Shown: piece after piece, positions 249-24,459 of the stretch
How the letters are laid out: every line of letters starts with the position of its first letter
Numbering within the stretch: the first letter of the stretch is position 1
DNA from: a virus
Reading direction: 5' to 3' (one strand)
DNA: 45,006 nt
Virus record (IMG/VR): IMGVR_UViG_3300025851_000003
Location: 1-45,006 of that record
Translations under genes and position numbers: made by a program
Notes under the pieces: model-generated
What the model saw: the letters and a program-made list of their open reading frames with translations, nothing else
Databases searched by the model: none
Told to the model about the DNA's origin: nothing

Positions 249-261
249 GTAGTCGGACTAT
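249..261. repeat. Palindrome family, degenerate 13-nt copy GTAGTCGGACTAT
   Basis: In the non-coding leader upstream of the first early ORF. Confidence 0.4.
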
Positions 262-285
262 GTTGTGTAAAGATGAAATGAGTAG

Positions 286-314
286 TAGACATACCTAATG
301 ATAACTGCCATACT
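286..314 (+). promoter_or_regulatory. Candidate sigma70-like early promoter (TAGACA-N17-CATACT)
   Basis: -35-like TAGACA at 286-291, 17-nt spacer, -10-like CATACT at 309-314, about 50 nt upstream of the first plus-strand ORF (ATG 363). Found by eye only. Confidence 0.25.
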
Positions 315-362
315 GTATACAGATCGAGGTATCCTACCTTTATCGTTAAAGAGGTTCTTATT

Positions 363-533
363 ATGTTCTCTATAGTGTTCGCTCTAATGCTCTTAGTAGG
401 TGGTATCGTTGGATTCGTCCTAGCTGCCATACACCAAGATGAGCAACCAGATCAAGATGAGTTCATGTCTTGTGATAGTAGCTGTTACTGTAAGTCTGAT
501 ACTAAGAACAATGGTCGTAAGGGGAGTAAGTAA
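363..533 (+). CDS. Small early membrane protein (56 aa)
   Basis: Below the ORF-track size cutoff. ATG is preceded by AAGAGG. Hydrophobic helix FSIVFALMLLVGGIVGFVLAAI, then a Cys-rich polar tail. Stop overlaps the next ATG (TAATG). Confidence 0.5.
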   Translation: MFSIVFALMLLVGGIVGFVLAAIHQDEQPDQDEFMSCDSSCYCKSDTKNNGRKGSK

Positions 534-694
534 TGTTTAAGATTAAGATTAGAATGTGCGGTGAGTGGTTCATTCTTGAGAGTGATAAAGGTTCTAAGGA
601 GCCAGACACCTTTAATACTTTTGAAGAGGCAGAGGTGGTCGCCAAGGAAAAGAGTCGTATGCTCAACACACGGTGTAAGGTGGTGAAGGCATGA
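533..694 (+). CDS. Small early protein (53 aa)
   Basis: ATG overlaps the upstream stop (TAATG). AAGGGGAG lies upstream. Its stop TGA overlaps the next ATG (ATGA). Confidence 0.45.
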   Translation: MFKIKIRMCGEWFILESDKGSKEPDTFNTFEEAEVVAKEKSRMLNTRCKVVKA

Positions 695-780
695 TTAATC
701 TTCTCCTTATTCGCTTGCATCCAATCACTAGCTGTGTAATAATACTGGCTTACTCATTCATACTATCAGGTACTCTATAA
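691..780 (+). CDS. Tiny hydrophobic ORF (29 aa)
   Basis: ATGA and TAATG coupling on both sides. AAGGTGGTGAAGG upstream. Very short, so weakly supported. Confidence 0.3.
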   Translation: MINLLLIRLHPITSCVIILAYSFILSGTL

Positions 781-950
781 TGGACTTTCAAACAATAGCT
801 TTAATCATCATCTGCCTTTGCTTCCTACCCACTGCTATCATGGTAGCGTTGCATCTCTTAACCTTATTCGTTGTTATACCATGTGCTGTTGTCATGCGTT
901 GGGTATACAAGATGTGTAAGATGAATCCACCAAAGAAGTGGGAGGGATAA
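780..950 (+). CDS. Small early membrane protein (56 aa, two hydrophobic segments)
   Basis: Translated by eye as MDFQTIALIIICLCFLPTAIMVALHLLTLFVVIPCAVV... followed by a basic tail. Coupled to the upstream stop. Confidence 0.45.
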   Translation: MDFQTIALIIICLCFLPTAIMVALHLLTLFVVIPCAVVMRWVYKMCKMNPPKKWEG

Positions 951-951
951 C

Positions 952-1059
952 ATGGAACTGCTAGTAATCGCCTTCGTTATAGCAGTCATCCCATTCTCTC
1001 TTACAATACTAGCCTTAACAGTACGTGAAATAATCATTGAACTAGATAGAGGTACTTAA
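952..1059 (+). CDS. Tiny membrane protein (35 aa)
   Basis: GGGAGGG Shine-Dalgarno upstream. Hydrophobic MELLVIAFVIAVIPFSLTILALTV. Ends 1 nt before ATG 1061. Confidence 0.4.
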   Translation: MELLVIAFVIAVIPFSLTILALTVREIIIELDRGT

Positions 1060-1060
1060 C

Positions 1061-1243
1061 ATGAACTATGAACAAGTGGAAGCAGTAGCTAAGGATATAC
1101 TAGCTAAACTTAATAGTGGTGAGTTGAAGAAGAGTGAGGCAGTGGCATGCCTTGAGGAGATCCAACGTACAGCAGGGAATGAGTTCTACTTAGTCAATGA
1201 GGATGGTACGTACTACTTAATGGAAGACGGGGAAGAGATATGA
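1061..1243 (+). CDS. Hypothetical early protein (60 aa)
   Basis: ORF track. AGAGGT upstream. Stop overlaps the next start (ATGA). Confidence 0.6.
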   Translation: MNYEQVEAVAKDILAKLNSGELKKSEAVACLEEIQRTAGNEFYLVNEDGTYYLMEDGEEI

Positions 1244-1662: not shown

Positions 1663-1668
1663 CTTCCT

Positions 1669-1856: not shown

Positions 1857-1880
1857 AATCATGCCTACCCAGTTTAACAT

Positions 1881-1893
1881 GTAGTCTGACTAC
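1881..1893. repeat. Palindrome family, 13-nt variant GTAGTCTGACTAC (flanked T...A)
   Basis: Intergenic. Followed by AAAGGA and then ATG 1907. Confidence 0.7.
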
Positions 1894-1906: not shown

Positions 1907-2497
1907 ATGACTAACCTAGTGATTCATGCAAAGGCAGTATTAAAAGCAGCAGTTAACAGCCAGAAGTTGATCGACAAGCAGGCTGCTAAGATTAGCGACA
2001 AGATCCTTGAGTTGTACAAGGCGAGTGATAGCTTGCAGTTGTTCAAGCAAGCATGTCAGGAAGCAGAGGGCGACTACCGTACAGCATGTGCTAAGGCTGG
2101 TACTAAGGACAACCTACCACGTTGCTGGTCACAAGCTAAGTCTGACCTAGTAGCAGCAGCCACTGCGGGTATCGATGTTAAGGGTTGTGCCTCAGTTAGC
2201 CAAGCCAAGCGTAAGAAGATCGAAGCTAACAAGGAGAAGGTAGCCAAGGACACAGTACACGCCAACGCAGGGCCAGCTAAGTCTGATGATGATGCTAGCC
2301 TAAGCAACAACAAGTTCGTGGTACTGAGTGAGCTGTTAGGCCAGCTGAGTGAGAGCATGCAAGGTGTCATGATGGATACCTTCATTGAGCAGGCCACCAA
2401 TGCAGTGAACACGATGTCCGACGACGCTTTCACTCAAGCAACAGGTGGTGCTACATACACTCGCGTTAAGGCTGACGCTAAGCTAGCTGCTGTTTAA
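1907..2497 (+). CDS. Hypothetical protein (196 aa)
   Basis: The ORF track opens this frame at 1823. ATG 1907 (MTNLVIHAK) has AAAGGAAAAG at the right spacing, whereas ATG 1823 has no usable SD and overlaps the repeat region. Confidence 0.7.
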   Translation: MTNLVIHAKAVLKAAVNSQKLIDKQAAKISDKILELYKASDSLQLFKQACQEAEGDYRTACAKAGTKDNLPRCWSQAKSDLVAAATAGIDVKGCASVSQAKRKKIEANKEKVAKDTVHANAGPAKSDDDASLSNNKFVVLSELLGQLSESMQGVMMDTFIEQATNAVNTMSDDAFTQATGGATYTRVKADAKLAAV

Positions 2498-2765: not shown

Positions 2766-2937
2766 TGTGAAGGGCGACAAGTGCACCATGTACAAGCAGT
2801 ATCGTATCACCTTAAACTCAGGTGTTACCTTTGAAGTTGCAGCCACTCGGTTAGGTGGAGCGTTAGCACTAGCCGAGATGCAGTGCGGAATATACGATGA
2901 GGTCACAGGTATAATCCGTTTAAGTTCAACCAAGTAG
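2740..2937 (+). CDS. Hypothetical protein (65 aa; could instead start at 2755)
   Basis: ORF track. Its TAG stop codon lies inside the palindrome at 2934-2947. Confidence 0.5.
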   Translation: MRNMTMDVNVKGDKCTMYKQYRITLNSGVTFEVAATRLGGALALAEMQCGIYDEVTGIIRLSSTK

Positions 2938-2947
2938 TCTAGACTAC
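2934..2947. repeat. Palindrome family, perfect GTAGTCTAGACTAC
   Basis: Its first TAG is the stop codon of CDS 2740-2937. A half site (AAGTAGTC) follows at 2951. Confidence 0.85.
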
Positions 2948-2996: not shown

Positions 2997-3140
2997 ATGA
3001 GTAAGTACAACGAGTATGATGTGGTACGTGACGGTGTGAGCAAGTCAGCATTGGAACGCAAGGCTAAGGTCAAGGCACATGGTAAGGCAAGACGTAATGG
3101 ACGTGCTCGTAAGGCTTACGGGGGTTCAGGACATGTCTAA
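2997..3140 (+). CDS. Small basic protein (47 aa)
   Basis: Below the ORF-track cutoff. AAGGTAGGG upstream. Translated by eye as MSKYNEYDVVRDGVSKSALERKAKVKAHGKARRNGRARKAYGGSGHV. Stop overlaps ATG 3133 (ATGTCTAA). Confidence 0.4.
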   Translation: MSKYNEYDVVRDGVSKSALERKAKVKAHGKARRNGRARKAYGGSGHV

Positions 3141-3702: not shown

Positions 3703-3716
3703 GTAGTCTAGACTAC
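3703..3716. repeat. Palindrome family, perfect copy (16-bp with T...A flanks)
   Basis: Intergenic. Sits just after the promoter-like TATCAA and 17 nt before ATG 3734. Confidence 0.85.
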
Positions 3717-3733: not shown

Positions 3734-4612
3734 ATGACAACTATCGCTTATGATATTGTATACGGTAATGGCAAGACAGTATTCCTAGACTGCGAGCACT
3801 GCTTCGGTAAGCTCAAGCACCTTGAGGAACAAGCGGAATGGTCGGACAAAATAAACTCGCCAAAGATTAACGATGGTGTACAGTTCATTCGCTATTACAT
3901 GGAAGCTAAGTATGAGGACAAGGCAGCGGCGCTTGCATGGTACGAGTACCTGTTATCAACTAAGATATTCGGTGGCTTAGTACTAGGCACCAAGCAATAC
4001 CGCCCAGTTGATATGTTAGAGAATGGCATCAACGTGAGTACACGTGGTCGTCCTTATCACATGCTTAACACACTGTCTATGTATCGTCATGCATATACAC
4101 ACTACCGACAGGTTGACATCTTCCACAAGCTGTTAGGGTTGGGGGTTAACAAGCACATGGCAGCGATTGCAGGTAACTTGCTGGACTATCAAGACAACCG
4201 TAACATAACAACCCTCAAGCATGAGGACGCGGAACATGCAGTGGTATGTCACAACACCTTCACACCGCGTGACTACCAACGGTACGTTGCTATGGCAGAG
4301 GGCACTAAGAAGGTACCGACTAGCCGACACGACCAGAAAGAAAGCTATCGTGTTAAGCCTGAGTATAAGGCGGGCGGTGTGGCTACTTGGTTGACATACA
4401 CGGATGATCGTGATAAGCACAGCGGTAAGGAATTGCTGGGTAACTTGCTGTTAGAGCAGGCATACACAGTACGGTATGACAAAGAGAAGAAAGAGGTAGT
4501 GGACATTATATCTGTTCCTCTCGCTGTAGATAGCAACGATACAGCTGCTATGGCACGGTTAGCCACACAACTGAACAAGTTACACGATGAACTTATCAAT
4601 GATGTAGTCTAA
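3734..4612 (+). CDS. Hypothetical protein (292 aa), first gene of the amidoligase island
   Basis: ORF track. GGAGAGAG upstream. No motif recognised. Its TAA stop lies inside the palindrome copy at 4604-4617. Confidence 0.8.
   Translation: MTTIAYDIVYGNGKTVFLDCEHCFGKLKHLEEQAEWSDKINSPKINDGVQFIRYYMEAKYEDKAAALAWYEYLLSTKIFGGLVLGTKQYRPVDMLENGINVSTRGRPYHMLNTLSMYRHAYTHYRQVDIFHKLLGLGVNKHMAAIAGNLLDYQDNRNITTLKHEDAEHAVVCHNTFTPRDYQRYVAMAEGTKKVPTSRHDQKESYRVKPEYKAGGVATWLTYTDDRDKHSGKELLGNLLLEQAYTVRYDKEKKEVVDIISVPLAVDSNDTAAMARLATQLNKLHDELINDVV
4571..4599 (+). promoter_or_regulatory. Weak promoter-like element (CTGAAC-N17-TATCAA) inside the 3-prime end of the 292-aa gene
   Basis: Has the same TATCAAT..GTAGTC arrangement as at 3696-3716. 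The -35 is poor. Confidence 0.2.
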
Positions 4613-4617
4613 ACTAC
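4604..4617. repeat. Palindrome family, GTAGTCTAAACTAC (1 mismatch)
   Basis: Its TAA is the stop of CDS 3734-4612. Followed by AAAGGA and ATG 4631. Confidence 0.8.
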
Positions 4618-4630
4618 AAAGGATAGAGAG

Positions 4631-5422
4631 ATGAACGCATTAACTGTTGGACATGACGCTGAAGTTTTTGTAACTAACCGAGGTACTATAGCCCATGCTA
4701 TTGGGTTGTTAGGTGGTACTAAGGACGAGCCCTTGCAGGTTGATCAAGGTGCCATACAAGAAGACAACGTGCTAGCTGAGCTTAACATCTGGCCTGCTAC
4801 TAATGCCGATGACTTCGTATCACGTACCAATGTGGTGATGGATGAGATTGTTACACGATTACCTGATGGGTATGACGTACGTGTTCAAGCATCGCATCAT
4901 TACACTAAGCCTGTGCTTATGGCTATGCCTGACCAAGCGTTAGACTTTGGATGTAGTCCAGACTACAATGCATGGACACTGAGTGCTAATGATGTGTCAT
5001 CTCCCTTGACTACACTGCGTACAGCGGGGGGACATGTGCACATAGGGTTCTCACAGGCCGTGACAGCCACCTCACAGGTAGAAGTCATGCGTATGTGTGA
5101 CTACCTATTGGGTCTGCCCTCTGTCCTGTTAGACGATGATGTAGAGCGTCGCTCTTTGTATGGTAAGGCAGGTGCTTACCGTCCTAAAGCATACGGTGCT
5201 GAGTATCGTGTGCTCTCTAACTTCTGGCTGAAGGATGAGGAGTTGATGCGTTGGGTATATGCTCAAGCTGTGTTGTGTCATGATGAGACGCACATGCTAG
5301 ATCACTATGCCTCACTGCCTAACGATGAGCTGATACGTATCATCAATGAGTCAGACAAGGTAGCTGCTGCTCATTGGGTTGAACAATTAGGATTGATAAT
5401 GCCGGAGTCATACCATGTTTGA
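4631..5422 (+). CDS. COOH-NH2 ligase, phage type 2 (GCS2/glutamine-synthetase-like amidoligase family)
   Basis: 263 aa. Recognised from memory of the phiEco32-like COOH-NH2 ligase family through the motifs GHDAE, LLGGTKDEP, QEDNVLAELNI, FGCSPDYNAW, LRTAGGHVHIG, RRSLYGKAGAYRPKAYGAEYRVLSNFWL. Confidence 0.8.
   Translation: MNALTVGHDAEVFVTNRGTIAHAIGLLGGTKDEPLQVDQGAIQEDNVLAELNIWPATNADDFVSRTNVVMDEIVTRLPDGYDVRVQASHHYTKPVLMAMPDQALDFGCSPDYNAWTLSANDVSSPLTTLRTAGGHVHIGFSQAVTATSQVEVMRMCDYLLGLPSVLLDDDVERRSLYGKAGAYRPKAYGAEYRVLSNFWLKDEELMRWVYAQAVLCHDETHMLDHYASLPNDELIRIINESDKVAAAHWVEQLGLIMPESYHV
4953..4966. repeat. Palindrome family, GTAGTCCAGACTAC (1 mismatch)
   Basis: Inside the COOH-NH2 ligase gene, read as S-P-D-Y. 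Confidence 0.75.
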
Positions 5423-5723
5423 AGTAGGGGATATAGTTCAGGGTAAAACTCCCGCTTATCTCGACTACACTATCACCACACATGATGCAACCTTGGAGGT
5501 GGTAGAGGTGAGAGGTCGGAATGTCATGATAGTTAAAGTTGTGCAACATCGCACCCGTCCTGATACCATTGGTAGTAGACACGGTGTCCGGTGTAAGGAC
5601 TTTATCTATCTTGGCACTGCGTGTGATGTTGTAGCGGTGAGTAGTTTAGACTACATGCAATCCAGTGAGCTGTCCGATGTGGATAAGATATTAATAGAGG
5701 GGGCGCTGTCATGTTTAAAGTAG
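5415..5723 (+). CDS. Small-protein paralog P1 (102 aa): variable N-terminal MFxVGD domain plus conserved acidic tail
   Basis: MFEVGDIV... then VSSLDYMQSSELSDVDKILIEGAL. Overlaps its neighbours at a conserved ATGTTTGAAGTAGG junction. Confidence 0.8.
   Translation: MFEVGDIVQGKTPAYLDYTITTHDATLEVVEVRGRNVMIVKVVQHRTRPDTIGSRHGVRCKDFIYLGTACDVVAVSSLDYMQSSELSDVDKILIEGALSCLK
5641..5654. repeat. Palindrome family, GTAGTTTAGACTAC (1 mismatch, synonymous)
   Basis: Encodes SLDY of paralog P1. Confidence 0.75.
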
Positions 5724-6025
5724 GTGATATAGTAGTAGGTAAGAAACTTGACCACCCAGTGTATGGTCTCACCAATCATGAGGCTGTAATGGAGGTGATT
5801 AATACAACAGCACATGGCTCCAATAGGATGAGAGTTAAAATTCTTGTTGCACCACCGCGCAGAGAGGATCAAGTGGGCAAGGATTATCCGGTTGCTAAAA
5901 GACACTTCGAACTCTACATACCTGCACAAGATAAGGTAATAGTGAGAAGTACAGATTACATGGACTGTGATGACTTGTCTGATGAGGACAAGGAGATAAT
6001 AGGGGCGGCGTTATGTTTGCAGTAG
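5711..6025 (+). CDS. Small-protein paralog P2 (104 aa)
   Basis: MFKVGDIV... then VRSTDYMDCDDLSDEDKEIIGAAL. The upstream stop overlaps the start by 13 nt (ATGTTTAAAGTAG). Confidence 0.8.
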   Translation: MFKVGDIVVGKKLDHPVYGLTNHEAVMEVINTTAHGSNRMRVKILVAPPRREDQVGKDYPVAKRHFELYIPAQDKVIVRSTDYMDCDDLSDEDKEIIGAALCLQ

Positions 6026-6291
6026 GTGATAGAGTTGTCCGCACGGTGGCATGGAACTATGCCCGCGGCATGGTTGTAGGTGAGGTTTATACAGTCACGC
6101 ATGTCATCAAACTACGTGAAGGTTCAAGACTACGTTACGTTGAACTGGACGGTATGCTTGGTCTATACAACGCTGAGAACTTCGAGCTAGTACAATCAAT
6201 GACGGTAGTAAGTAGTCTAGACTACATGAATGACACCGTGTTAGATGAGGAAGACAAGCGTATCATAGGAGAAGCGTTATGTTTAAAGTAG
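6013..6291 (+). CDS. Small-protein paralog P3 (92 aa)
   Basis: MFAVGDRV... then VSSLDYMNDTVLDEEDKRIIGEAL. Same overlapping junction. Confidence 0.8.
   Translation: MFAVGDRVVRTVAWNYARGMVVGEVYTVTHVIKLREGSRLRYVELDGMLGLYNAENFELVQSMTVVSSLDYMNDTVLDEEDKRIIGEALCLK
6212..6225. repeat. Palindrome family, perfect copy
   Basis: Encodes SLDY of paralog P3. Confidence 0.85.
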
Positions 6292-6557
6292 GTGATAGCG
6301 TTGTAAGAATCAACAGAAACATGCCACATACCGGAGTGTATGTAGGAGATACGTATACAGTAGCACATTCCGATATGCGGGGTAATATAGGCGTCATAAC
6401 GTTGGTGGGTCTCGGATCGGCTGTGTTCTACTCAAGCAACTTCAAGCTCGGACAGCAATCATTCAGGGTGAATGTAAGTAGTCTAGATTACATGAACGAT
6501 GATACCTTGAGCATTGAAGATAAACAAATTATAACTGAGGCATTGAGTAATGATTAA
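6279..6557 (+). CDS. Small-protein paralog P4 (92 aa)
   Basis: MFKVGDSV... then VSSLDYMNDDTLSIEDKQIITEAL. Confidence 0.8.
   Translation: MFKVGDSVVRINRNMPHTGVYVGDTYTVAHSDMRGNIGVITLVGLGSAVFYSSNFKLGQQSFRVNVSSLDYMNDDTLSIEDKQIITEALSND
6478..6491. repeat. Palindrome family, GTAGTCTAGATTAC (1 mismatch, synonymous)
   Basis: Encodes SLDY of paralog P4. Confidence 0.75.
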
Positions 6558-7164
6558 GGATCGAGAGCTATACACAAGACAGGATACCTCGATGTACCTG
6601 TCTGATTGTATCGTAGGTGTACGCACTGATGAGGGTATCGAGGCACACACTGTACGTGGTGTTGACAGTAGTATACTGCGCTTAGATAATGATCAACGTT
6701 CGTTAGAGATAGACTTCTATGATGAGCGTTTGATACTTGACTGGCCTACACTAGGTGTCGTACAGTTCAGAGGTTTTGTTGGGTACGTCATGACAGAATC
6801 ATTCGATGGTGCATACAAGAAGGGGTTCAACATACGAGGCACCGCACCTATCAAGGTTCCCTTTGCTACCGAGGTTGAGTACATAGGCGAACCATACCTA
6901 TCACACAAGGTACTCAGTGACATGTATGATAACAAGTCGCTCTCATTACAAGAGGCATGTGCCTTGCTTAGTACCCACATATCAGTACGTATTGATCGTA
7001 GCTTCTTTGTTGGTCATAGGTATGGGTATGCCATGCCCTTACTAGGGTATCGAGATAAGGTAGTAGGTGAGGTGCACGGTGATACTGTGATCTTGTTCCC
7101 TTCCTCCGCTCATCTAGCTAGTAAGTTAGAGAGCATAGCAACTGTTGAAATCCACGAGGGTTAG
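6550..7164 (+). CDS. Hypothetical protein (204 aa) inside the amidoligase island
   Basis: ORF track. Overlaps the P4 stop. No motif recognised. Confidence 0.75.
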   Translation: MIKDRELYTRQDTSMYLSDCIVGVRTDEGIEAHTVRGVDSSILRLDNDQRSLEIDFYDERLILDWPTLGVVQFRGFVGYVMTESFDGAYKKGFNIRGTAPIKVPFATEVEYIGEPYLSHKVLSDMYDNKSLSLQEACALLSTHISVRIDRSFFVGHRYGYAMPLLGYRDKVVGEVHGDTVILFPSSAHLASKLESIATVEIHEG

Positions 7165-7168
7165 TACG

Positions 7169-8134
7169 ATGAAGAAGATGTATGAGATATTCGAGAAGGA
7201 TGACGATGCAGTGGGTTGTAATGTATCTCCTTACCTAGTCAGTAACACAATGGTAGGTATTGAGCACGAGTTAGAGGGATACGATACGGAAATAAATGTT
7301 GGTGGTTGGAAGACAGAGCATGATCCCTCTCTACGTAATGGTGGTATCGAGTTCATACTTGATGGCCCTCAAGGTGGTGCTAGGTTAGTAACATCAATCG
7401 AGGCTATGCACAGTATGATTGATAGGCATCCTGAGTTGATAGCCAATGAGCGCACATCAACACACATCCACATAGATGCACGTGATATGACAACACGTCA
7501 GCTATTGAACATGATTGTAGTCTACACTACATTCGAACATGCTATCTTCGCTATGTGTGAGCAGTCACGTACCGATAACAACTTCTGTGTACCATCATAC
7601 AAGAACGGCGGTCTTGCTGACCGTGTACGTAGAGTGCACCTTAACCCTGATAGTGATAGCGCAGTGCATACATTAGCTCACAGTAACTTTCGTTACGCAG
7701 CTATGAACCTGTCAGCTCTGTCACGGTACGGTTCAATAGAGTTTCGTATGAGTGGTACGCTTACTGATAAGGATAAGCTGTTCGATTGGATCAACATCTT
7801 CTTGTCTATCAAGACATTCGCTATGTTGTTAGGCGAGGATGATGTGCAAGATACCATCACTCGTATGAGTAAGATGGAGGCACCACGTCTTACCTCTTTT
7901 ATTTTTGGTGAGAAAATTGCCGAGCTATTTAGTGATAAGGTGAACATGTTTCAGGTGGTAGGTGAGGGGTTGCTACTTGCTAAGCATACATACTGTAGTA
8001 ATGTAGCGTCAGACGCTGATGTATGCGACTATGCACAGCGTTGTGATGTAGAGGCAAGCCCTATACTGGGTGCAATAGAAAGTTTAACAGGCGGTCGTAC
8101 AGACTTCGTTAATTATATGAGAGGTGCAGGATAA
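7169..8134 (+). CDS. Putative amidoligase (Amidoligase_2 / glutamine-synthetase-like fold)
   Basis: 321 aa from ATG 7169 (GAGGG upstream); the track start 7145 is a TTG. Motifs GIEHELE, DPSLRNGGIEF, STHIHID and YGSIEFRMSGT match the putative amidoligase enzyme family as I remember it. Confidence 0.8.
   Translation: MKKMYEIFEKDDDAVGCNVSPYLVSNTMVGIEHELEGYDTEINVGGWKTEHDPSLRNGGIEFILDGPQGGARLVTSIEAMHSMIDRHPELIANERTSTHIHIDARDMTTRQLLNMIVVYTTFEHAIFAMCEQSRTDNNFCVPSYKNGGLADRVRRVHLNPDSDSAVHTLAHSNFRYAAMNLSALSRYGSIEFRMSGTLTDKDKLFDWINIFLSIKTFAMLLGEDDVQDTITRMSKMEAPRLTSFIFGEKIAELFSDKVNMFQVVGEGLLLAKHTYCSNVASDADVCDYAQRCDVEASPILGAIESLTGGRTDFVNYMRGAG
7517..7530. repeat. Palindrome family, GTAGTCTACACTAC (1 mismatch)
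   Basis: Inside the amidoligase gene in the GTA GTC frame. The mismatch turns the would-be TAG into TAC. Confidence 0.7.
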
Positions 8135-9504
8135 TGTGTGGTATCGTAACGGTATTTGGTAAGGGCATGGGCACCACACACGGTGCTATCTTCCATGACC
8201 TACTAATCATTGATCAACTGCGTGGTGTGCATGGTACTGGCATCATCAAGATCAAGAAGAATGGTGAGGCATGGGTACTTAAGGATGGTGTCAATGCATC
8301 TGAGTTACTAGCTGATCCAGCTAACAAGGAGTTTGCTAAGAATGCTAGCACGGCTAACGGTTTCATAGGACACAATCGTTGGGCTACTGTTGGTGCTCAT
8401 ACATCTGACAACTCACATCCATTCACACATGATAACATCTGTATGGTACACAATGGCACGCTTGATGATCAATCTAAGCTAGCCACTGACAAGGATCACA
8501 AGGAGTTCGCTGTTGATAGTGATCAGATAGCCTTCACTCTATCTAAACGTAGCGTAGAGGACACAGTGAAGGCCATTGATGGTGCCTTTGTACTGGCATG
8601 GCATGATGATGAGGACAACTCATTCAACTTTGTACGTAATGATGAGCGTCCATTCCATATAGCTAAGGTGCAGGGACAGGATATCTACATCGGTGCTAGT
8701 GAGGAGTGGATGATACATGCAGCCATTAGCAGACAGAAGGTAGTCTTTGAGATTGACCCACCTAAAGAGTTACCTGTTGGTGTGCATGTTAAGTTCGAGT
8801 TACCTATGCACTACGGTGCGATGGGTGATGTAACCAAGACAACAGTCTCGCTTATGCCTGAGACAGAGAGGTACTGGGCTTCGCTGAGTGCGTACAAAAG
8901 CGCAACCAACTGGAATGGTGGCCAAAGCTCTCGCAGCTATAAGAAATTTCAAGCTCCGAAAGTAGTCCAGACTACACACAAGACGCTATCCTCACAGGTA
9001 GCTGCTGATATGAAGCGCTTGGAACATAAGATTGGTGAGTATGTCGAGGTTGATATGTCACACTTCGAACCATACCCTCAAGCTACTAGTACTGGTAAGC
9101 AGTACGGTGTCATGCATGGTACTGCTATCGTAGCAGGTGGGTTACAAGCTTACGCTGTACATGCAGTCGATCAAGATAAGTTCAAGGAAGGTGCATACAC
9201 TGGCAAGGTAGTGAGTGTGTCGCACAACCTACGTAGAGATGGTGTGCCTCGTGACATGCGTGACATCATTATCTTACATGATGTGACTAAGGCAAGCGTT
9301 TCGCATGATGATGCTTACTTGTATGGCCCGACAGGTGATCTTGTTACAGCTAAGGCATTCAAGATACTAACAGCTGAAGGTTGTATCTGTTGCACATGTG
9401 AGATAACAGAGCAGATGGACACTGATATGTCATGGGATTTCAATGAGCCTGTATGTCCTAACTGTACTGATAGTCTCAAGGGTATGCAAACACTAGCAGT
9501 ATAG
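8134..9504 (+). CDS. Class II (Ntn) glutamine amidotransferase domain protein with unknown C-terminal half and terminal zinc ribbon
   Basis: 456 aa. Begins MCGIV (Cys nucleophile after Met removal). GHNRWATVG...NSHPF...MVHNGTL is typical of GATase type 2. The C-terminal ~230 aa are unassigned and end in CICCTC...CPNC. Confidence 0.85.
   Translation: MCGIVTVFGKGMGTTHGAIFHDLLIIDQLRGVHGTGIIKIKKNGEAWVLKDGVNASELLADPANKEFAKNASTANGFIGHNRWATVGAHTSDNSHPFTHDNICMVHNGTLDDQSKLATDKDHKEFAVDSDQIAFTLSKRSVEDTVKAIDGAFVLAWHDDEDNSFNFVRNDERPFHIAKVQGQDIYIGASEEWMIHAAISRQKVVFEIDPPKELPVGVHVKFELPMHYGAMGDVTKTTVSLMPETERYWASLSAYKSATNWNGGQSSRSYKKFQAPKVVQTTHKTLSSQVAADMKRLEHKIGEYVEVDMSHFEPYPQATSTGKQYGVMHGTAIVAGGLQAYAVHAVDQDKFKEGAYTGKVVSVSHNLRRDGVPRDMRDIIILHDVTKASVSHDDAYLYGPTGDLVTAKAFKILTAEGCICCTCEITEQMDTDMSWDFNEPVCPNCTDSLKGMQTLAV
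8962..8975. repeat. Palindrome family, GTAGTCCAGACTAC (1 mismatch)
   Basis: Inside the amidotransferase gene in the GTA GTC frame. The mismatch turns TAG into CAG. Confidence 0.7.
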
Positions 9505-9603
9505 GAGGCAGCATGTTTATTAGGAACCCATGGTTCATGGAGAGTAGTGTAGTATCATTAACGTTAGACAAATCATTTAAAATATTAGACGGAGAGCTTA
9601 CTG

Positions 9604-10374: not shown

Positions 10375-10657
10375 TGCAATGTGTTGCTCGGTTGGTGATG
10401 CGATAGGCCATTCGTGGGATGGCAACAGATGGTTGGTTGAATCAACAATGGCAATTGGTGTCACGGTACGGCGTATACTAGAAGATGGCAAGCTGGCTGG
10501 TCGGGCTATTCCGGTATACAATTATACGTTAAGGGGAATGGTTATCTTCGAACACGCAGGGGTGCCATCGGCTCTAACAGTAAGTAGTCTGGACTACATG
10601 AATGATGATGAACTGTCTGATGAGGATAAGGACATAATAGCGAGGGCTTTGGCATGA
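10367..10657 (+). CDS. Small-protein paralog P5 (96 aa)
   Basis: ..CSVGDAIG... then VSSLDYMNDDELSDEDKDIIARALA. Overlaps the ATP-grasp stop. Confidence 0.8.
   Translation: MANAMCCSVGDAIGHSWDGNRWLVESTMAIGVTVRRILEDGKLAGRAIPVYNYTLRGMVIFEHAGVPSALTVSSLDYMNDDELSDEDKDIIARALA
10584..10597. repeat. Palindrome family, GTAGTCTGGACTAC (1 mismatch, synonymous)
   Basis: Encodes SLDY of paralog P5. Confidence 0.75.
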
Positions 10658-14602: not shown

Positions 14603-16596
14603 TCTTTGATTGGGAAGCTAATGGCTTACTCGAAGAGGTTACTACTGCTCACTGCTTTGTTGGGATAGACGTAGGTAGTGGGGAGAAGTTTGAATCATAC
14701 ACTGGACAGGAGGATTGGATACAACGTAGTCTAGACTACATGGATACAGCAAAGGTATTGGTAGGACATAACATCATCGGTTATGATCTACCTATGCTTA
14801 AGAAGTTATACAACTGGAAGCCTAAGCCTGATGTACAGATAGTTGATACGTACATACAGAGCAGGACGCAGCATCCTGATAGACGCAGACCATTCAATAT
14901 GAAAGGTAAGGGTGGACCACATGGTCTTGATGCTTGGGGTTACAGAGTTGGTAGAGGTAAGCCATCGTATGATCAATGGGAAACATTCGACATGGAGATG
15001 TTACACCGTTGCTCAGAGGATGTAGCTATCAACGTACTAACCTATAAGAAGTTATGCGAGGAAGGTGGACAGGAGATACTAAACTTCTGGTGGTGTGGCG
15101 CACCATGGAACAAGTCGTTACGCTTAGAGCAGACGGTACAGACGTTCATCAATGAGATGGAGATCAATGGTTGTCCTGTTGATCAACCTCAGATGGAAGA
15201 ACGTATCGCTGACCTGACTGCTATGATGAATGAGATTGAGCGCGAGATCTTACCTGACATACCAAAGAAGATTAGTATGCACGGTGTCGTAGTTAGTAAG
15301 CCCTTCTTGAAGAATGGTGGTCTAGCTAAGATGACAACTGATTGGACTGATGAGGATGTAGGTGGCCCCTTCAGTCGTGTCAAGTTCACACCATTGAACC
15401 TTGGCTCAGAGAAACAAGTGAAGGAATACCTACTTAGTATTGGTTGGATACCTACTGAGTATAACTTCAAGAAGGTAACACAGATAGAACATGATGATCC
15501 ATCATCACCTTATCACGGTCAACCTGTTAAGAGAGAGGCCAAGGATAAGGATGGTAACAAGGTAAGGGCTGGCCCTAAGCTTACAGAGGACTCCTTCAAG
15601 TCGTTGAAGAGTGATGTCGGTAAGAAGATTGCTAGCTACTTACAACGTAGCCACCGTAGAAGCTTACTAGAGGGACTTGTTAAACGTATCCGACCAGACG
15701 GTAGGATATCACAAGGTATCACTGGTATCGCATCGACAGGACGCTACAAGCACACAGGTATTGTTAACATCCCAAGCACAGGATGGTATGGACATGAGAT
15801 TAGATCTTGTTTCGTATCACCTACTGGCTACAAGATGATCGGTACTGATGCAGCTTCATGTCAGTTACGTATGCTAGCTCATTACATGGGTGATGAGGAG
15901 TACATACGAACAGTATGTGAGGGTGAGGAAGCGATTGAACAACCAGATAAGACAGAGATCTACGTAGGTACTGATGTGCATACACGTAATGGACTGGCTG
16001 CTGGCTTGATTAATCCTGACTGGGTAGAACATTGTAAGGGTAAGTTCATACATGACCTTGCTCATGATGACATATATAATGTCCTCTCATACAACAGACG
16101 GTTAGCTAAGAACTTTATCTACGGTCTACTCTTTGGTGCTGGTGATCCTAAGATTGCTGATACCTTGGGTGTGACAGTACGTAAGGCTAAACAGATACGA
16201 GCTACCTTCATGGCTGGGTTGCCTGCACTAGCAGCGCTACTTGCTAAGCTTGATAAGGTATACAAAGAGAGAGGTTATGTTGTTGCACCTGATGGTCGTA
16301 AGCTATATGTACGCTCAGCACATATGATGCTAGTGTATCTCCTACAAGGAGCAGAGGCTACGTTCATGAAGGTTGCATGGTGTTACCTTAACAATGGTGT
16401 TGCGAAGGCTGGACTTGATGTTCAGAAGGTCATGTTTAATCATGATGAATTCCAAGACCTTGTTGCAGAGAAAGATGTTGATGCCTACATGGACATTGCG
16501 AAGGACGCATTCGTACGTGCTGGTGTTTACTTAAAGTTTAAATGTCCCACTGCTGGTGGCCCGAAGGTTGGGTTGTCATGGTATGAGACACACTAA
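14593..16596 (+). CDS. Family A DNA polymerase with 3-prime-5-prime exonuclease domain (T7 gp5-like)
   Basis: 667 aa. Exo motif LVFDWEANGL, motif A GTDAASCQLRMLAH, motif B RRLAKNFIYGLLFGAG, motif C NHDEFQ. Confidence 0.92.
   Translation: MYLVFDWEANGLLEEVTTAHCFVGIDVGSGEKFESYTGQEDWIQRSLDYMDTAKVLVGHNIIGYDLPMLKKLYNWKPKPDVQIVDTYIQSRTQHPDRRRPFNMKGKGGPHGLDAWGYRVGRGKPSYDQWETFDMEMLHRCSEDVAINVLTYKKLCEEGGQEILNFWWCGAPWNKSLRLEQTVQTFINEMEINGCPVDQPQMEERIADLTAMMNEIEREILPDIPKKISMHGVVVSKPFLKNGGLAKMTTDWTDEDVGGPFSRVKFTPLNLGSEKQVKEYLLSIGWIPTEYNFKKVTQIEHDDPSSPYHGQPVKREAKDKDGNKVRAGPKLTEDSFKSLKSDVGKKIASYLQRSHRRSLLEGLVKRIRPDGRISQGITGIASTGRYKHTGIVNIPSTGWYGHEIRSCFVSPTGYKMIGTDAASCQLRMLAHYMGDEEYIRTVCEGEEAIEQPDKTEIYVGTDVHTRNGLAAGLINPDWVEHCKGKFIHDLAHDDIYNVLSYNRRLAKNFIYGLLFGAGDPKIADTLGVTVRKAKQIRATFMAGLPALAALLAKLDKVYKERGYVVAPDGRKLYVRSAHMMLVYLLQGAEATFMKVAWCYLNNGVAKAGLDVQKVMFNHDEFQDLVAEKDVDAYMDIAKDAFVRAGVYLKFKCPTAGGPKVGLSWYETH
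14726..14739. repeat. Palindrome family, perfect copy
   Basis: Inside the DNA polymerase gene, read as R-S-L-D-Y-M. Confidence 0.85.
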
Positions 16597-18002: not shown

Positions 18003-18825
18003 TGCGGACATCCTCTGCTATGAGATAGGCTTTGTTACTGAGCAAGTAACCTTCTCTTATAAGGGGAAGCATTACGGCACAATCACAGAGGCTAAGGCTC
18101 ATGTAGTCGGACTACAAACGGATGATCTTGAACGTCATGTACATCCAGATCCTGCTCACTTAGCTAAGAAGATGATTGACACACGGATAGCAGGTATACT
18201 CAAGGCAGTGGGAGCAACAAGTTATAAGTGCTTCTTAACTGGTAAGGGTAACTTCCGTAATGAGACAGCTACTATCCTTAAGTATAAGGGTACACGCCAC
18301 TCACCTAAGCCTTACCACTATCAAACGATATGGGATTACTTGGTAGCTAAGTATGATGCCACTGTCATTGAGGGATACGAAGCTGATGATGCTATATCAA
18401 TAGCTCAGTACCAAGGTGATGGCGACACAGTGATCTGCTCACGGGACAAGGACTTAAGGATGGTACGTGGCTACCATTACTCATGGAAGTGTGGTGATAG
18501 ACAGCCTGAGAAGCCCCTGTATACTATATCAGAGTTCGAGGGATCATACAACTGGGCATATCAGATGCTGGTGGGTGATACAGTGGACAACATATGGGGT
18601 GTACCGGGGATTGGGCCTAAGAAGGCTAAGGGAATACTTGAAGCATGTGCTACATACGCTGAGTTAAAGGCAGCAGTCATGGCTACATACTTAAAGGTGT
18701 TCGGAGATGAACCTATTAACTATCAATCATGGGATGGCAAGTGGTTAACTACTACCTACAAGGGCATAGCTAAGGAGAACCACCACCTACTATGGATGAT
18801 GAGAGATGTTAAGGAGATACCATGA
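17986..18825 (+). CDS. 5-prime-3-prime exonuclease / flap endonuclease (FEN, PIN plus H3TH)
   Basis: 279 aa. Acidic-cluster motifs DADILCYE, GYEADD and SRDKDL, plus the H3TH-like GDTVDNIWGVPGIGPKKAK. Confidence 0.8.
   Translation: MKALIDADILCYEIGFVTEQVTFSYKGKHYGTITEAKAHVVGLQTDDLERHVHPDPAHLAKKMIDTRIAGILKAVGATSYKCFLTGKGNFRNETATILKYKGTRHSPKPYHYQTIWDYLVAKYDATVIEGYEADDAISIAQYQGDGDTVICSRDKDLRMVRGYHYSWKCGDRQPEKPLYTISEFEGSYNWAYQMLVGDTVDNIWGVPGIGPKKAKGILEACATYAELKAAVMATYLKVFGDEPINYQSWDGKWLTTTYKGIAKENHHLLWMMRDVKEIP
18103..18115. repeat. Palindrome family, 13-nt variant GTAGTCGGACTAC (flanked T...A)
   Basis: Inside the FEN gene in the GTA GTC frame. The shortened centre removes the TAG. Confidence 0.7.
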
Positions 18826-21883: not shown

Positions 21884-21893
21884 GGTAATAAAC

Positions 21894-22325
21894 ATGACTA
21901 CGATAGCATACAGTTACAAGATGGGCCTAGTTGCTTACGATTCACGTGCAACAGGTGGTTCTTATATCTATACGGATAGTATGGAGAAGAAGATCAAAGT
22001 TGATGGGGTTACATTCTTATTAGCTGGTCAATGTTCTGACAGAGAGGAGACAGTAGCTGCATACTTCACAGAGGATCGGGAGATTCGAGAAGATATTGTG
22101 GTTAATGCTTTCGCTATTGTCCATAAAGAGAAGAAGGTTTACATGTTAACAGCAGAGGATGGTAAGATGTCTGTCACTGAGATGGATCATGATACATGTG
22201 CAGGGTCAGGAGGACATTACGCTATTACAGCATTGGATTGTGGGCTAACACCCAAGGAGGCTATCAAGATGGCAGCTAAACGAGATGCTTGTACAGGTGG
22301 GAAGATTCGGCAGGTGAAGGTGTGA
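21894..22325 (+). CDS. HslV/proteasome beta-like Ntn threonine peptidase (short form, 143 aa)
   Basis: Begins MTTIAY, giving Thr1 after Met removal. Has an AYDSRAT Asp, a MEKKIKV Lys and a CAGSGGHYAITAL GSGG motif in the order and spacing seen in HslV (TTIV..GDGQ..KKV..GSGG.YA). Confidence 0.7.
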   Translation: MTTIAYSYKMGLVAYDSRATGGSYIYTDSMEKKIKVDGVTFLLAGQCSDREETVAAYFTEDREIREDIVVNAFAIVHKEKKVYMLTAEDGKMSVTEMDHDTCAGSGGHYAITALDCGLTPKEAIKMAAKRDACTGGKIRQVKV

Positions 22326-22326
22326 T

Positions 22327-22500
22327 ATGTATATAGCCATACCACTACTAATCATTCTAGTTACATGTTTCGTTGCAACTTTATGTTACTTGGAGATGGC
22401 ACACAGGGAGAACTTAATGTTATTAAAGATGATTGGTGATTTAGGAGCTCAGAACGAGCAAGGAGGTGGTTGTATCTGCGTAGGCCCACGCATTGGGTAG
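22327..22500 (+). CDS. Small membrane protein (57 aa), holin or lysis-accessory candidate
   Basis: Below the track cutoff. GAAGGTG upstream. N-terminal helix YIAIPLLIILVTCFVATLCYL. Last gene of the plus arm. Confidence 0.45.
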   Translation: MYIAIPLLIILVTCFVATLCYLEMAHRENLMLLKMIGDLGAQNEQGGGCICVGPRIG

Positions 22501-22512
22501 AGTTAAAACACA

Positions 22513-22548
22513 GGGGAGGTAGGCATTGCGCTTACTTCCCCTTTTTTT
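22513..22548 (+). terminator. Rho-independent terminator between the convergent arms
   Basis: GGGGAGGTAGGC (22513-22524), loop ATTGC, GCTTACTTCCCC (22530-22541). This gives a 12-bp stem with two G-U pairs, followed by TTTTTTT (22542-22548). The reverse strand has only a weaker U-rich trail. Confidence 0.75.
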
Positions 22549-22552
22549 GTGC

Positions 22553-22801
22553 CTAGAATAAACGTTCTAACATACGTAGTACTACATCTGAGTTCATCCC
22601 TAGCATCCCTGCACCTCCTGCCACTAACCACTTAAAGCCCATCACGACAGTCCTTGTCATGCTCATAGTGTCGGTCAATGTATCGACCTTGTCCCCTAGC
22701 TTATCTACTTTTTCATCTATATCTTCTACCTTTTTATCTAGCATATCGAGTTTCCCTTTTACATAACCTAACTCGGCTGTATTATTGTCTGTCTGACTCA
22801 T
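22553..22801 (-). CDS. Small coiled-coil protein with C-terminal membrane segment (82 aa), XhlA/holin-like architecture
   Basis: ORF track. N-terminal heptad-like KLDMLDKKVEDIDEKVDKLGDKVDTL. C-terminal VVMGFKWLVAGGAGMLG. Confidence 0.55.
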   Translation of the reverse strand: MSQTDNNTAELGYVKGKLDMLDKKVEDIDEKVDKLGDKVDTLTDTMSMTRTVVMGFKWLVAGGAGMLGMNSDVVLRMLERLF

Positions 22802-24459
22802 CGTAGAACTCCTGCCTCAATATTGAACAGCTTACGAATGTAGTCTAGACTAGACTCGTGTTCATCCTTCCATAGATACGGATACTTATTAGCTAGTCCT
22901 GCCATAGACTGCACACTAGCTTGCATTAAGGAGTCAACACCTGTCCCCGATGCACGTATCGTCTTAACTATACTGCCCACCCCAAACGCTCCTCTATTCC
23001 TTACAGCTTCTACTTCTTGAATATCGAAATCACTTGGTACGTTGCCTTGAGCAAGTATTAAGTTAGCTTTAGCTTGTCTCACAACACCTTCCAGACTACT
23101 TTCCAACGGCTTACGCCACTGTTCTGGATTACGTGCAATCAAAGCTGGGTATTCACCCTTACCTAGTAGTGCAATAGAGGTGGGGCTGTCGATAGCCGCA
23201 TCCTTAAACAACTGCTCAGCTTGTGGATTAACTTTCAAGCCTTCCTCTACTACACTTCCTAAGTTCTTAGAACCTAACATAGTTATAAAACCAGCAGTCT
23301 CAGCTAATTTCTCTTCAGGGTCACTTGCACCGAATAAGGAGTTAACACCCTTACCCATGACGTGAGCTATGTCCTGTTCAAACTGTCCTACCATACCCGA
23401 AACCTTCTTAAAGAAGGGATCATTCTCTAGAACAATACCTAATTCATCGTTCCCTTGGAATGCAGTAAGTAACTTAGTAACACCTACCTCTCCCATGCTA
23501 TCCTTAACAGCCTTTAAAGCACCGAAGTTCTTTAATACAGCACTATCAAAGTTATTCTTTAGGATAGACTGGTTATCCTTAACGATATTTAACATGGCGC
23601 TATCGTCCATCAAACCTTTAAGAGAGAATATAGTATCATCAACCTCTTTACGTGCATCCTGATAAGCACGAGCTGATATCTTTGTACCACCAGCCATTCT
23701 CTGTAACTGCTTATGTAACTTAGATTCAATCAGAGGAAGCTGTTGCTTGTATTCTAAGAGGCGTTGAGGTGATAGAGCACCATTGGTATTAACATCAGCT
23801 ATAAGCGCCTGAGAGAGGTTCATACGAGCCTCATTGGATGCAGACGAAGCGAATGATAGATACTCATCACCATTAAGCTCACGTCTAGCCTTAGTTAATG
23901 CTATCTTCTTCTGATCAAACATCATCTGCTCATTATCTTCGATGCGTTGTTCAGCTAATTCCTCAGATACACCAAGCTTAAGAGCTGTTGATGTGACATT
24001 GGCACGATACTCGGCCTCTGCCTTCTCCTCAGCAGTAGGTGTGAAGATGGATGCACCAGCACCTCCGAAGAACTTGTTGTATTCCTTCTGAATGTCATCA
24101 GCGAAGAAGGCATTATCATTCTTTGCTGTCTTTAAGATAGAAGTAGCACGAGCCTTAGCCTGTGCAAGTGGTAAGCCTGCCTTACGAGCAGCAGCCAACT
24201 TACCTAAGCTATTAATACTGTCGTTAGCCATAGACTGTCCAACCTCGTCAACCTCCTCCATAGAAGCTAGAGCCTCTTTAGGGACGATATCAAGGCTACC
24301 ATCTGTAAGAGAGGCGACAGCTAGTTGCCGTCCCCCCTCCACTGCTAATCCACCAATCTTACTGATTAAATCAGCACCTGATGTGTCAACATTAGCACCC
24401 TGTACGAAAGTGTTAGCTGTAGTATCTGATAGTTGTGGAGCGAATATATTACTGGCCAT
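22798..24459 (-). CDS. Internal virion / ejection protein candidate (553 aa)
   Basis: ORF track. Sits at the end of the tail and internal-protein block, as T7 gp15/gp16 do. No enzymatic motif recognised. Confidence 0.6.
   Translation of the reverse strand: MASNIFAPQLSDTTANTFVQGANVDTSGADLISKIGGLAVEGGRQLAVASLTDGSLDIVPKEALASMEEVDEVGQSMANDSINSLGKLAAARKAGLPLAQAKARATSILKTAKNDNAFFADDIQKEYNKFFGGAGASIFTPTAEEKAEAEYRANVTSTALKLGVSEELAEQRIEDNEQMMFDQKKIALTKARRELNGDEYLSFASSASNEARMNLSQALIADVNTNGALSPQRLLEYKQQLPLIESKLHKQLQRMAGGTKISARAYQDARKEVDDTIFSLKGLMDDSAMLNIVKDNQSILKNNFDSAVLKNFGALKAVKDSMGEVGVTKLLTAFQGNDELGIVLENDPFFKKVSGMVGQFEQDIAHVMGKGVNSLFGASDPEEKLAETAGFITMLGSKNLGSVVEEGLKVNPQAEQLFKDAAIDSPTSIALLGKGEYPALIARNPEQWRKPLESSLEGVVRQAKANLILAQGNVPSDFDIQEVEAVRNRGAFGVGSIVKTIRASGTGVDSLMQASVQSMAGLANKYPYLWKDEHESSLDYIRKLFNIEAGVLR
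22840..22853. repeat. Palindrome family, GTAGTCTAGACTAG (1 mismatch)
   Basis: The only copy in the structural arm. Read on the minus strand as S-L-D-Y near the C-terminus of the 553-aa protein. Confidence 0.7.

Follow-up and report, generated by a model that had tools for sequence, protein, structure and literature searches.

Why does the early half of one phage genome repeat a single short palindrome, at the junctions between its genes as well as inside them? The question is raised by a window of 45,006 bp (IMG/VR record IMGVR_UViG_3300025851_000003, taken here at its full length), which is the complete or nearly complete genome, recovered from a metagenome, of an uncultured marine podophage of the RIO-1-like (Zobellviridae-type) kind, ~45 kb in size. 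The element is the 14-mer GTAGTCTAGACTAC, in which the arms GTAGT(C) and (G)ACTAC enclose a short centre. The palindrome is a real, strongly selected and family-specific signal. With a probability of roughly one half, it acts as a stem-loop in the sense-strand RNA at the junctions of early and middle genes, where a sequence-specific factor would read it.

The window contains five exact copies and 13 copies at one mismatch or less, which three 13-nt variants complete to a total of 16, all of them lying where the original prediction, made from the letters alone, had placed them. The members are given below in order of position, with a degenerate seventeenth copy; L followed by a number denotes another of the phage loci compared.

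249-261, plus strand: 13-nt variant GTAGTCGGACTAT, 5' of the first early promoter (286-314); the L225 ortholog is the 14-nt GTAGTCCAGACTAT.
1881-1893, plus strand: 13-nt variant GTAGTCTGACTAC, (T)GTAGTC-T-GACTAC(A), abutting the Shine-Dalgarno (SD) sequence AAAGGA of gene 1907-2497.
2934-2947, plus strand: exact copy; the TAG stop of 2740-2937 is formed by its bases 2-4, and the next start (2997) lies 49 nt on.
3703-3716, plus strand: exact intergenic copy, 17 nt 5' of the start of 3734-4612; L225 has GTAGTTTAGACTAC there.
4604-4617, plus strand: one-mismatch copy GTAGTCTAAACTAC; its central TAA is the stop of 3734-4612, and the COOH-NH2 ligase gene starts 13 nt on.
4953-4966, plus strand: one-mismatch copy GTAGTCCAGACTAC, within the COOH-NH2 ligase gene; conserved in L225.
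5641-5654, plus strand: one-mismatch copy GTAGTTTAGACTAC, tail of paralog P1 (SSLDYM); P2 starts 56 nt on.
5946-5959, plus strand: degenerate seventeenth copy GAAGTACAGATTAC with four mismatches, in paralog P2 (RSTDYM); excluded from the member count.
6212-6225, plus strand: exact copy, tail of paralog P3.
6478-6491, plus strand: one-mismatch copy GTAGTCTAGATTAC, tail of paralog P4; the change is G·U-compatible.
7517-7530, plus strand: one-mismatch copy GTAGTCTACACTAC, amidoligase gene (VVYTT); L223 has the identical 14-mer there and L221 has GTAGTCTACACTGC.
8962-8975, plus strand: one-mismatch copy GTAGTCCAGACTAC, glutamine amidotransferase gene.
10584-10597, plus strand: one-mismatch copy GTAGTCTGGACTAC, tail of paralog P5.
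10874-10887, plus strand: exact copy, tail of paralog P6; the GGCT gene lies 56 nt on.
14726-14739, plus strand: exact copy, DNA polymerase gene, codons 45-49 (RSLDYM).
18103-18115, plus strand: 13-nt variant GTAGTCGGACTAC, 5'-3' exonuclease gene.
22840-22853, minus strand: one-mismatch copy GTAGTCTAGACTAG, near the 3' end of a 553-aa minus-arm gene and 38 nt before the 82-aa gene 22801-22553.

This abundance is not reproduced by chance. In dinucleotide shuffles of the window, exact copies number 0.00 and copies with up to two mismatches 0.46, where 5 and 13 are observed. Shuffles that keep both the encoded proteins and the codon usage give on average 2.4 copies at one mismatch or less (maximum 5), where 13 are observed, and the remainder essentially consists of the two to three intergenic copies that lie beyond the reach of the shuffle. 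Five copies sit in six tandem paralogs and are not independent of one another, because the paralogs share descent; the ~11 independent copies that are left are still far above chance.

Selection acts on the nucleic acid rather than on the encoded peptide. As the original prediction had held, every perfect intragenic copy is read in the S-L-D-Y frame, and copies read as GTA-GTC have a changed central TAG. It had also noted that the motif supplies real stop codons, the TAG of 2740-2937 at copy 2934 and the TAA of 3734-4612 at copy 4604, and that copies 1881, 3703 and 4604 end 13-17 nt before a start codon; both observations hold. Codon choice is tied to the motif in the paralog tails (13 tails, four genomes), with AGT for Ser in 13 of 13 (25% genome-wide), CTA for Leu in 9 of 11 (20%) and GAC for Asp in 10 of 13 (32%), while the Asp of the nearby EDK motif prefers GAT. 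The L072 DNA polymerase carries GTTGTCTAGACTAC 4 nt away from the position of the copy in the window and in another frame, so that the peptide reads ALSRLH there and RSLDYM in the window. The shuffles, the codon locking and the polymerase frame difference thus establish selection at the nucleic-acid level, and the conservation of the element in distant lineages strongly supports the same conclusion, which the original prediction had drawn. GGATACA repeats flank the copy at 14726, but an insertion of a mobile element into the polymerase gene was rejected, as there is no insertion relative to homologs.

The copies follow a junction rule. In a census of 96 copies from 15 sequences, 57 (59%) lie at gene boundaries, though sequence outside open reading frames (ORFs) makes up 15%. 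Where an ORF ends within 100 nt upstream of a boundary copy, 30 of 43 copies fall between -9 and +15 nt of that stop: 17 overlap it, as TAG or TAA and in two frames, and 13 more follow it by 15 nt or less. The start of the next long ORF lies a median of 25.5 nt away, and after many copies the ribosome-binding site (RBS) begins within 0-6 nt. A start preceded by an SD sequence is found within 35 nt at 14 of 53 sites on the sense strand and at 0 of 53 on the mirrored strand. The remaining 39 copies are intragenic, half of them no more than 72 nt from the stop of their own gene, and the sole minus-arm copy, at 22840, obeys the same junction rule on its own strand. Several copies lie downstream of terminator-like hairpins. 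The TATCAAT element, resembling a -10 box, that the original prediction had noticed upstream does not generalise: -10 hexamers at a fixed distance upstream are no commoner than in the mirrored control, and a general layout of a -10 box followed by an operator was dropped for this lack of enrichment. A promoter scan near the copies flagged only 4941-4969 and 7487-7515. The motif was also tried as a promoter in itself, with the internal TAGACT as the -10 box, and rejected, since the RBS begins 0-6 nt after many copies and there is no -35 box. At two sites only, 1895-1900 and 4619-4624, the RBS after the hairpin reads ACAAAGGA, which resembles the A(N)GGA binding consensus of CsrA/RsmA.

The arms of the element are nearly invariant and the centre is free in both sequence and length, forms of 13, 14, 15 and 16 nt being found with intact arms. 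In a set of 100 distinct sites with no more than two mismatches, 27 mismatches fall in the arms (positions 1-5 and 10-14), for the most part at the terminal pair, and 41 in the centre (positions 6-9). The site before the gene of the W1907 family, named after gene 1907-2497 of the window, takes the following forms, for which the pairs were counted by eye.

Window and relatives down to 75% protein identity (75-92%): TGTAGTC-T-GACTACA.
L223: GTAGTC-TA-GACTAA.
L229 and L230: GTAGTC-TAA-GACTAC.
L221, L227 and L228: GTAAGC-ACT-GCTTAC.

In the last form two base pairs are changed on both sides relative to GTAGTC/GACTAC. A more complete exchange is seen before the ligase gene, where the exact motif of L226 and L227 gives way in L223 to GGGGCTTCGGCCCC (GGGGC-TTCG-GCCCC), which fills the same 14 alignment columns between conserved flanks. 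All cells of this alignment (100%) are paired and three pairs are changed on both sides, a level that shuffling attained in only 2 of 500 cases. The L223 substitute has its extra-stable C(UUCG)G tetraloop on the sense strand alone. The element and its swaps comprise TGTAGTCTAGACTACA, the 13-nt and 15-nt forms, GTAAGC-ACT-GCTTAC and GGGGCUUCGGCCCC. The varying arm spacing and the hairpin swaps favour a hairpin over a rigid duplex site. So do the arm transitions, 11 of which are G·U-compatible on the sense strand and 2 on the antisense strand only (p = 0.02), though coding constraint and orthology inflate the figure. The native stem is 5-7 bp long, AT-rich and without a U-tract; in isolation the hairpin is worth -2.4 kcal/mol as RNA and -1.3 kcal/mol as DNA, and it is part of the minimum-free-energy structure in half of the contexts (6 of 12). 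A role as a generic stabiliser or terminator is therefore unlikely, and a weak hairpin with a conserved stem sequence calls for a reader protein. Directly after copy 2934, at 2948-2963, there is a start-stop mini-ORF (ATGAAGTAG) together with a third arm, GTAGTC, both conserved in L225, so that the right arm could pair with either neighbour, the alternative hairpin being GACTAC-ATGAA-GTAGTC.

The element is not confined to the window. An exact-pattern scan of IMG/VR found the palindrome in several copies in contigs spanning 33-49% GC, which include at least four other distant lineages.

UViG_3300032212_000016 (L007 and L015): 13 copies.
UViG_3300038682_000083 (L017 and L072): 16 copies.
UViG_3300030450_001638 group (L012 with L044, L001, L008 and L105): ~10 copies.
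UViG_3300006802_003101 and 3300021964_000108 (L005 and L010): 2 copies each.

Of the four, three have the amidoligase cluster or replication genes in common with the window (25-46% identity); for the L005/L010 lineage only a weak terminase match is seen (20% identity). Every closer relative retrieved carries the palindrome as well, as a rule in several copies, and in L225, L226 and L227 intergenic copies are kept at orthologous places. The conservation that the original prediction had proposed to check is thus observed both near and far. The palindrome is absent from 85 relatives, namely RIO-1, Vibrio phage 1.208.B, phage T5S1 and 82 others. The distribution is therefore patchy: by their ATP-grasp protein, several motif-less relatives are closer to the window than the motif-bearing lineages are. 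A minority of the motif-less relatives have early-region inverted repeats of their own.

GGACAG-N4-CTGTCC: seven loci (for example L194 3651-6490 and L205 3454-8065).
TCCTAA-NN-TTAGGA: L207 1013-10277, 8 copies.
CTAATAG-NN-CTATTAG: L136 315-5045, three copies within 75 bp at the left end.

The centres of these repeats vary, and flip at orthologous sites (GGATTC versus GAATCC). The enriched 8-mers of RIO-1 were considered as an equivalent element and set aside, as they have no common flanks and look compositional. No match at the Rfam gathering threshold was obtained at any motif copy of the window and five motif-rich loci, and a literature search with the motif sequence and for Zobellviridae promoters returned no description; the element is undescribed so far. 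Metagenome scans yielded no confirmed relative, and a DNA pattern of the ligase start gave only unrelated sequences.

A candidate for the reader is provided by the gene that directly follows copy 1881.

1907-2497, plus strand: 196-aa all-helical early protein, the W1907 family, directly 3' of copy 1881.

Among the sequences fetched, homologs of this protein occur only in motif-bearing genomes. The homolog in L007 (1031-1732) is found by phmmer at 4e-9; those in L017 (5509-6174) and L012 (592-1260) are tentative, with a profile-comparison P-value of 3e-4 and an hhalign probability of only 40%. A database search returned nine homologs with 46-92% identity, and each contig that bears one carries the motif: L225 has 10 copies, L223 9, L221 11, L226 7, L227 5, L229 2 and L230 1, while in the two shortest contigs, L242 (778 bp) and L243 (2.5 kb), the check covered the site before the gene, which has the 13-nt form in both. 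The family is absent from cultured phages and from the 85 motif-less relatives. This co-occurrence, which holds for each genome in which protein or motif could be examined, is suggestive, and it is partly confounded by relatedness. Comparison of the motif-bearing loci by BLAST and phmmer for other shared small regulators brought out the W1907 family only. The AlphaFold (AF2) model is all-helical, with a per-residue confidence (pLDDT) of ~85-91 for residues 1-116. Profile and fold searches against the PDB gave nothing significant, the best hit being TetR-like at E ~2, and the sole structural relatives are uncharacterised viral proteins; the match in BFVD may reflect more divergent versions of the protein in other phages. 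As far as can be inferred, the W1907 protein is the only candidate trans-acting partner of the motif.

In the favoured reading, a stem of 5-6 bp, GUAGU(C)/(G)ACUAC, closed by a loop of 3-4 nt, would act in cis in the sense RNA of the early and middle plus arm. The hairpin would have its place at the cistron junction, where it overlaps or closely follows the stop of the preceding gene and leaves 10-40 nt to the RBS of the following one; a few copies lie inside middle genes. A dedicated trans-acting factor, for which the early protein 1907-2497 is the candidate, would bind or cut it by its stem sequence and thereby determine how the flanking mRNA segments are processed, how stable they are or how they are translated. 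Such a system would correspond to the intercistronic hairpins of T7-type early mRNAs with regulation added. A bolder proposal, which we consider unlikely, is a self-contained hairpin code in some marine Zobellviridae-like phages. An orphan W1907 reader would recognise the stem GUAGU(C)/(G)ACUAC in RNA; by binding or cleavage there, it would divide the polycistronic early transcripts into units under separate control. Sister lineages would use GGACAG/CUGUCC and UCCUAA/UUAGGA with readers of their own. If true, this would define a new family of hairpin-reading proteins with programmable specificity, similar in function to Cas6 or RegB and unrelated to both.

Several observations weigh against an RNA stem-loop. 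The G·U bias of the arm transitions is partly confounded by coding constraint and shared ancestry, and each of the two hairpin replacements is probably a single evolutionary event. A site-specific extension of the stem into the flanks was sought and rejected (permutation p = 0.49), and the hybrid-arm sites of L221 (GTAGTC-TA-GCTTAC) pair poorly. In L005 and L010 the promoter TTGCGC-17-TATAAT ends 2 nt before a copy, so that the transcript would begin inside the left arm, and a second copy lies 78 bp downstream, just before the first gene, which is an operator-like geometry. In three members of the clade copies are found 5' of the first early promoter (window 249, L225 7409 and L221 9179), where they probably lie in untranscribed DNA. 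Two copies precede tRNA genes, and the role is for this reason not purely translational. No RNA-binding or nuclease domain is found in any protein of the window.

Much of this evidence would be accommodated by a double-stranded DNA operator or stoperator-like roadblock, at which a dimeric phage regulator on two GTAGTC half-sites would shut off or tune the early and middle units, in parallel to the dispersed repressor sites of cluster A mycobacteriophages or P1. We consider such an operator rather unlikely, and it is the main rival. A perfect palindrome with invariant arms and a variable, uncontacted centre is what a dimer would see, and the flanks have consensus-type palindromy without site-specific pairing. 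The order of promoter, operator and second operator in L005 and L010 is joined by some L007 sites that overlap promoters and by the copies upstream of the first early promoter, and L136 has its own repeat three times in a 75-bp stretch at its left end. Lineage-specific arms with varying and flipping centres are expected of co-evolving pairs of protein and operator, and the copy before the W1907 gene itself would be in place for autoregulation. In contrast, the spacing of the arms shifts by 1-3 bp even at orthologous sites, which a rigid dimer would not tolerate; unrelated hairpins replace the element at the same place; a -10 box just upstream is no commoner than in the mirrored control; and the transitions show a strand bias. 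Moreover, Pfam and PHROG scans of ~45 early proteins reveal no nucleic-acid-binding domain, be it helix-turn-helix (HTH), ribbon-helix-helix or another DNA-binding fold. Within the GGACAG repeat cluster of L194 there is a small HTH-like ORF (4296-4439).

A recombination hotspot is an improbable primary function. The 14-mer would serve as micro-homology at gene boundaries, within or between co-infecting phages, and shuffle early ORFan cassettes in the manner of the promoter-early stem-loops (PeSLs) of T4-type phages. Copies do flank small early ORFans, which differ between the window and L223 while the conserved anchor genes on either side and the motif copies are kept, and the patchy, non-monophyletic distribution suggests horizontal spread. 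On the other hand, a homology of 14 bp is very short, and the intragenic copies are made by point substitution within conserved enzymes (DNA polymerase, amidoligase) rather than at cassette borders. The sigma-70 promoter and GC-rich terminator stem that define a PeSL are absent, and the presence of an unrelated hairpin in the same place in L223 speaks for structure and not for homology. A PeSL-like role in recombination is possible as a secondary property of the element.

Highly improbable, in turn, is a structural or enzymatic signal in the DNA itself. Such a site might serve priming or replication as a cruciform or single-strand hairpin, be specifically nicked or modified, or act as a hairpin promoter of the N4 kind. 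Hairpin arms with flexible loops would also fit recognition of single-stranded DNA, and GTC, the recognition core of T7-type primases, is held by the arms on both strands of a phage that has a gp4-like primase-helicase. However, replication, nicking or modification would not be expected to confine the copies to the early arm and gene junctions, and a nick at a palindromic site would yield double-strand breaks. The DNA hairpin is very weak (-1.3 kcal/mol), the UUCG substitute is an RNA-specific motif, and an RBS only 0-6 nt after many copies leaves no room for a downstream transcription start. Neither a phage RNA polymerase nor a methylase or nickase was identified among the window proteins, the 1460-aa protein matching an internal virion protein family. 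The absence of any nucleic-acid function, with the copies explained by an SLDY protein motif, paralogy or compositional bias, is suggested by the shared descent of the five paralog copies and is already refuted by the polymerase frames, the codon-preserving shuffles and the locking of codon choice to the motif, and also disagrees with copies that are intergenic or in different frames and with the same 14-mer in genomes of 33-49% GC. Thus, of the roles listed in the original prediction, the small RNA hairpin is the best supported, the operator of a dimeric regulator is a live rival, recombination may be secondary, and nicking or modification is unsupported.

Viewed against known systems, the element would work most like the intercistronic hairpins of T7 early mRNA, and it lacks defining features of RNase III sites, PeSLs, stoperators, boxB and N4 promoters where these could be tested. 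The RNase III hairpins of the T7 early region (R0.3-R1.3; Dunn and Studier) are irregular, ~50-60 nt long and cut by host RNase III. As with R0.3-R1.3, hairpins are repeated between consecutive early genes of a podophage of the T7 supergroup, just 5' of the next RBS, and the intercistronic position in a polycistronic early mRNA that marks an RNase III site is occupied. The T7 hairpins shape the stability and translation of polycistronic early mRNA segments, and a functional likeness is proposed here. In contrast, a stem of 5-6 bp is too short for RNase III: the extended duplex of about two helical turns with an internal loop is lacking, the stem reaching 5-7 bp with no extension into the flanks. 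Unlike T7 sites, the copies are identical in sequence between one another and across distant phages, and also occur inside genes.

Small RNA hairpins that are recognised by proteins include lambda boxB with N, the MS2 coat-protein operator, the T4 gp43 operator and the substrates of Cas6/Csy4, and Csy4 recognises the sequence of the stem with little dependence on the loop. The element shares with them a stem of 5-6 bp, a small loop, a lineage-specific sequence and, in some cases, a position next to an RBS. Whereas those systems have one or two sites or a repeat array, 10-16 dispersed copies are found here, some intragenic or before tRNA genes, and no homolog of N, coat protein, RegA or Cas6 was found. 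A lambda nut/boxB system has one site per early operon, between the promoter and the terminators, and a small arginine-rich reader, in contrast to 16 copies, some of them intragenic and several located after terminator-like hairpins; the 47-aa basic ORF 2997-3140 was considered as a reader of the boxB type and found no support. A translational operator would lie only at the RBS of the regulated genes, which agrees with 14 of 53 sites, and 39 of 96 copies are intragenic. N4 has three hairpin promoters for its virion RNA polymerase, a giant protein. These promoters are DNA hairpins with stems of 5-7 bp and loops of 3 nt that lie in a podophage early region, and to that extent the element resembles them, but no RNA polymerase gene was found and the RBS is too close for a downstream start.

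The PeSLs of T4-type phages combine a stable GGGG...CCCC terminator stem with a consensus sigma-70 promoter (PMC2839356, PMC4122927). The likeness lies in a repeated stem-loop motif that borders small early ORFans in plastic regions and is kept where the ORFans differ; the element differs in having no associated promoter, a weak and AT-rich stem and only 10-40 nt to the next start. The stoperators of cluster A mycobacteriophages are asymmetric DNA sites with a fixed length of 13 bp, bound by the HTH immunity repressor of a temperate phage, and their consensus co-evolves with the phage protein (PMC9283540, PMC6550527). Tens of copies of a short site in short intergenic gaps, with a lineage-specific consensus, are common to both. 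Unlike a stoperator, the present element is a palindrome with a centre of variable length, has no repressor identified with it and is replaced by unrelated hairpins; lysogeny genes are not recognisable in the phage.

Transcription and mRNA control are essentially unstudied in the abundant marine podophages of the RIO-1/VpV262 type, which have no RNA polymerase of their own. The element is a testable handle on them, being one 14-mer with natural variants and natural hairpin swaps that act like mutagenesis, and with a candidate partner protein without known fold relatives. A confirmed reader would represent a new module of sequence-specific recognition of RNA (or DNA) and would explain the timing of early versus middle genes. 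The motif is also a marker by which a sub-lineage can be followed through metagenomes.

The genome that carries the element has a plus-strand early and replication arm from 1 to ~22.5 kb and a minus-strand structural arm in the remainder. The genes recognised encode a gp4-type primase-helicase, a family A DNA polymerase and a 1460-aa internal virion protein, together with a cluster of COOH-NH2 ligase, amidoligase, glutamine amidotransferase, ATP-grasp and GGCT genes. The closest cultured relatives are Zobellviridae, namely Vibrio phages 1.208.B and PS32B and Pseudoalteromonas phage RIO-1, with DNA polymerases ~35% identical, and among 50,697 phage records there is no nucleotide-level match to the window. 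A near-identical contig (>99.99%), Ga0105356_10000300, is present in JGI metagenome sample 3300008222. About 127 bp are identical at both ends of the window (1-127 and 44880-45006); RIO-1 has a direct terminal repeat of 121 bp, and the identity reflects either such a repeat or an overlap from circular assembly.

Three near-identical promoters of sigma-70 type are located at 286-314, 1632-1660 and 1804-1832, with the sequence TAGACA-17-(C/G)ATACT and a TG extension in each, and are probably early promoters of the host polymerase. Between the primase and DNA polymerase genes, at 13413-13877, lies a gene for a protein with a signal peptide and a PagP-like beta-barrel, and at the matching position RIO-1 and T5S1 encode a sigma factor. 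No sigma homolog is detectable anywhere in the window, and the anticorrelation between palindromes and the phage sigma factor is not significant.

The six tandem paralogs (92-104 aa; 5415-6557 and 10367-10947) are contained in the ligase/Amidoligase_2/GATase/ATP-grasp/GGCT cluster at 4631-11321. They begin with MF[KA]VGD..V and end in the conserved acidic tail SSLDYM.DD.LS.EDK.II.EAL, one to four copies are retained in relatives, and they may be peptide substrates or carriers for the ligases.

Other loci display further small elements. In L205 (3430-3530) an extended -10 promoter (TGTTATAAT) is followed 9 nt on by GACAGGAAGCTGTC and then by an intrinsic terminator, which is possibly a tiny promoter-hairpin-terminator unit for a small RNA. 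Three tandem 20-bp repeats (cacattatgacaattatggt) occupy 628-707 of L007, between two exact copies 94 bp apart and in the ORF-free stretch that opens the early region, and could be an origin, an iteron-like array or a promoter cluster. The motif-bearing contig L005 contains at 8344-8407 a match to the type II hammerhead ribozyme of 41 bits, above the Rfam gathering score.

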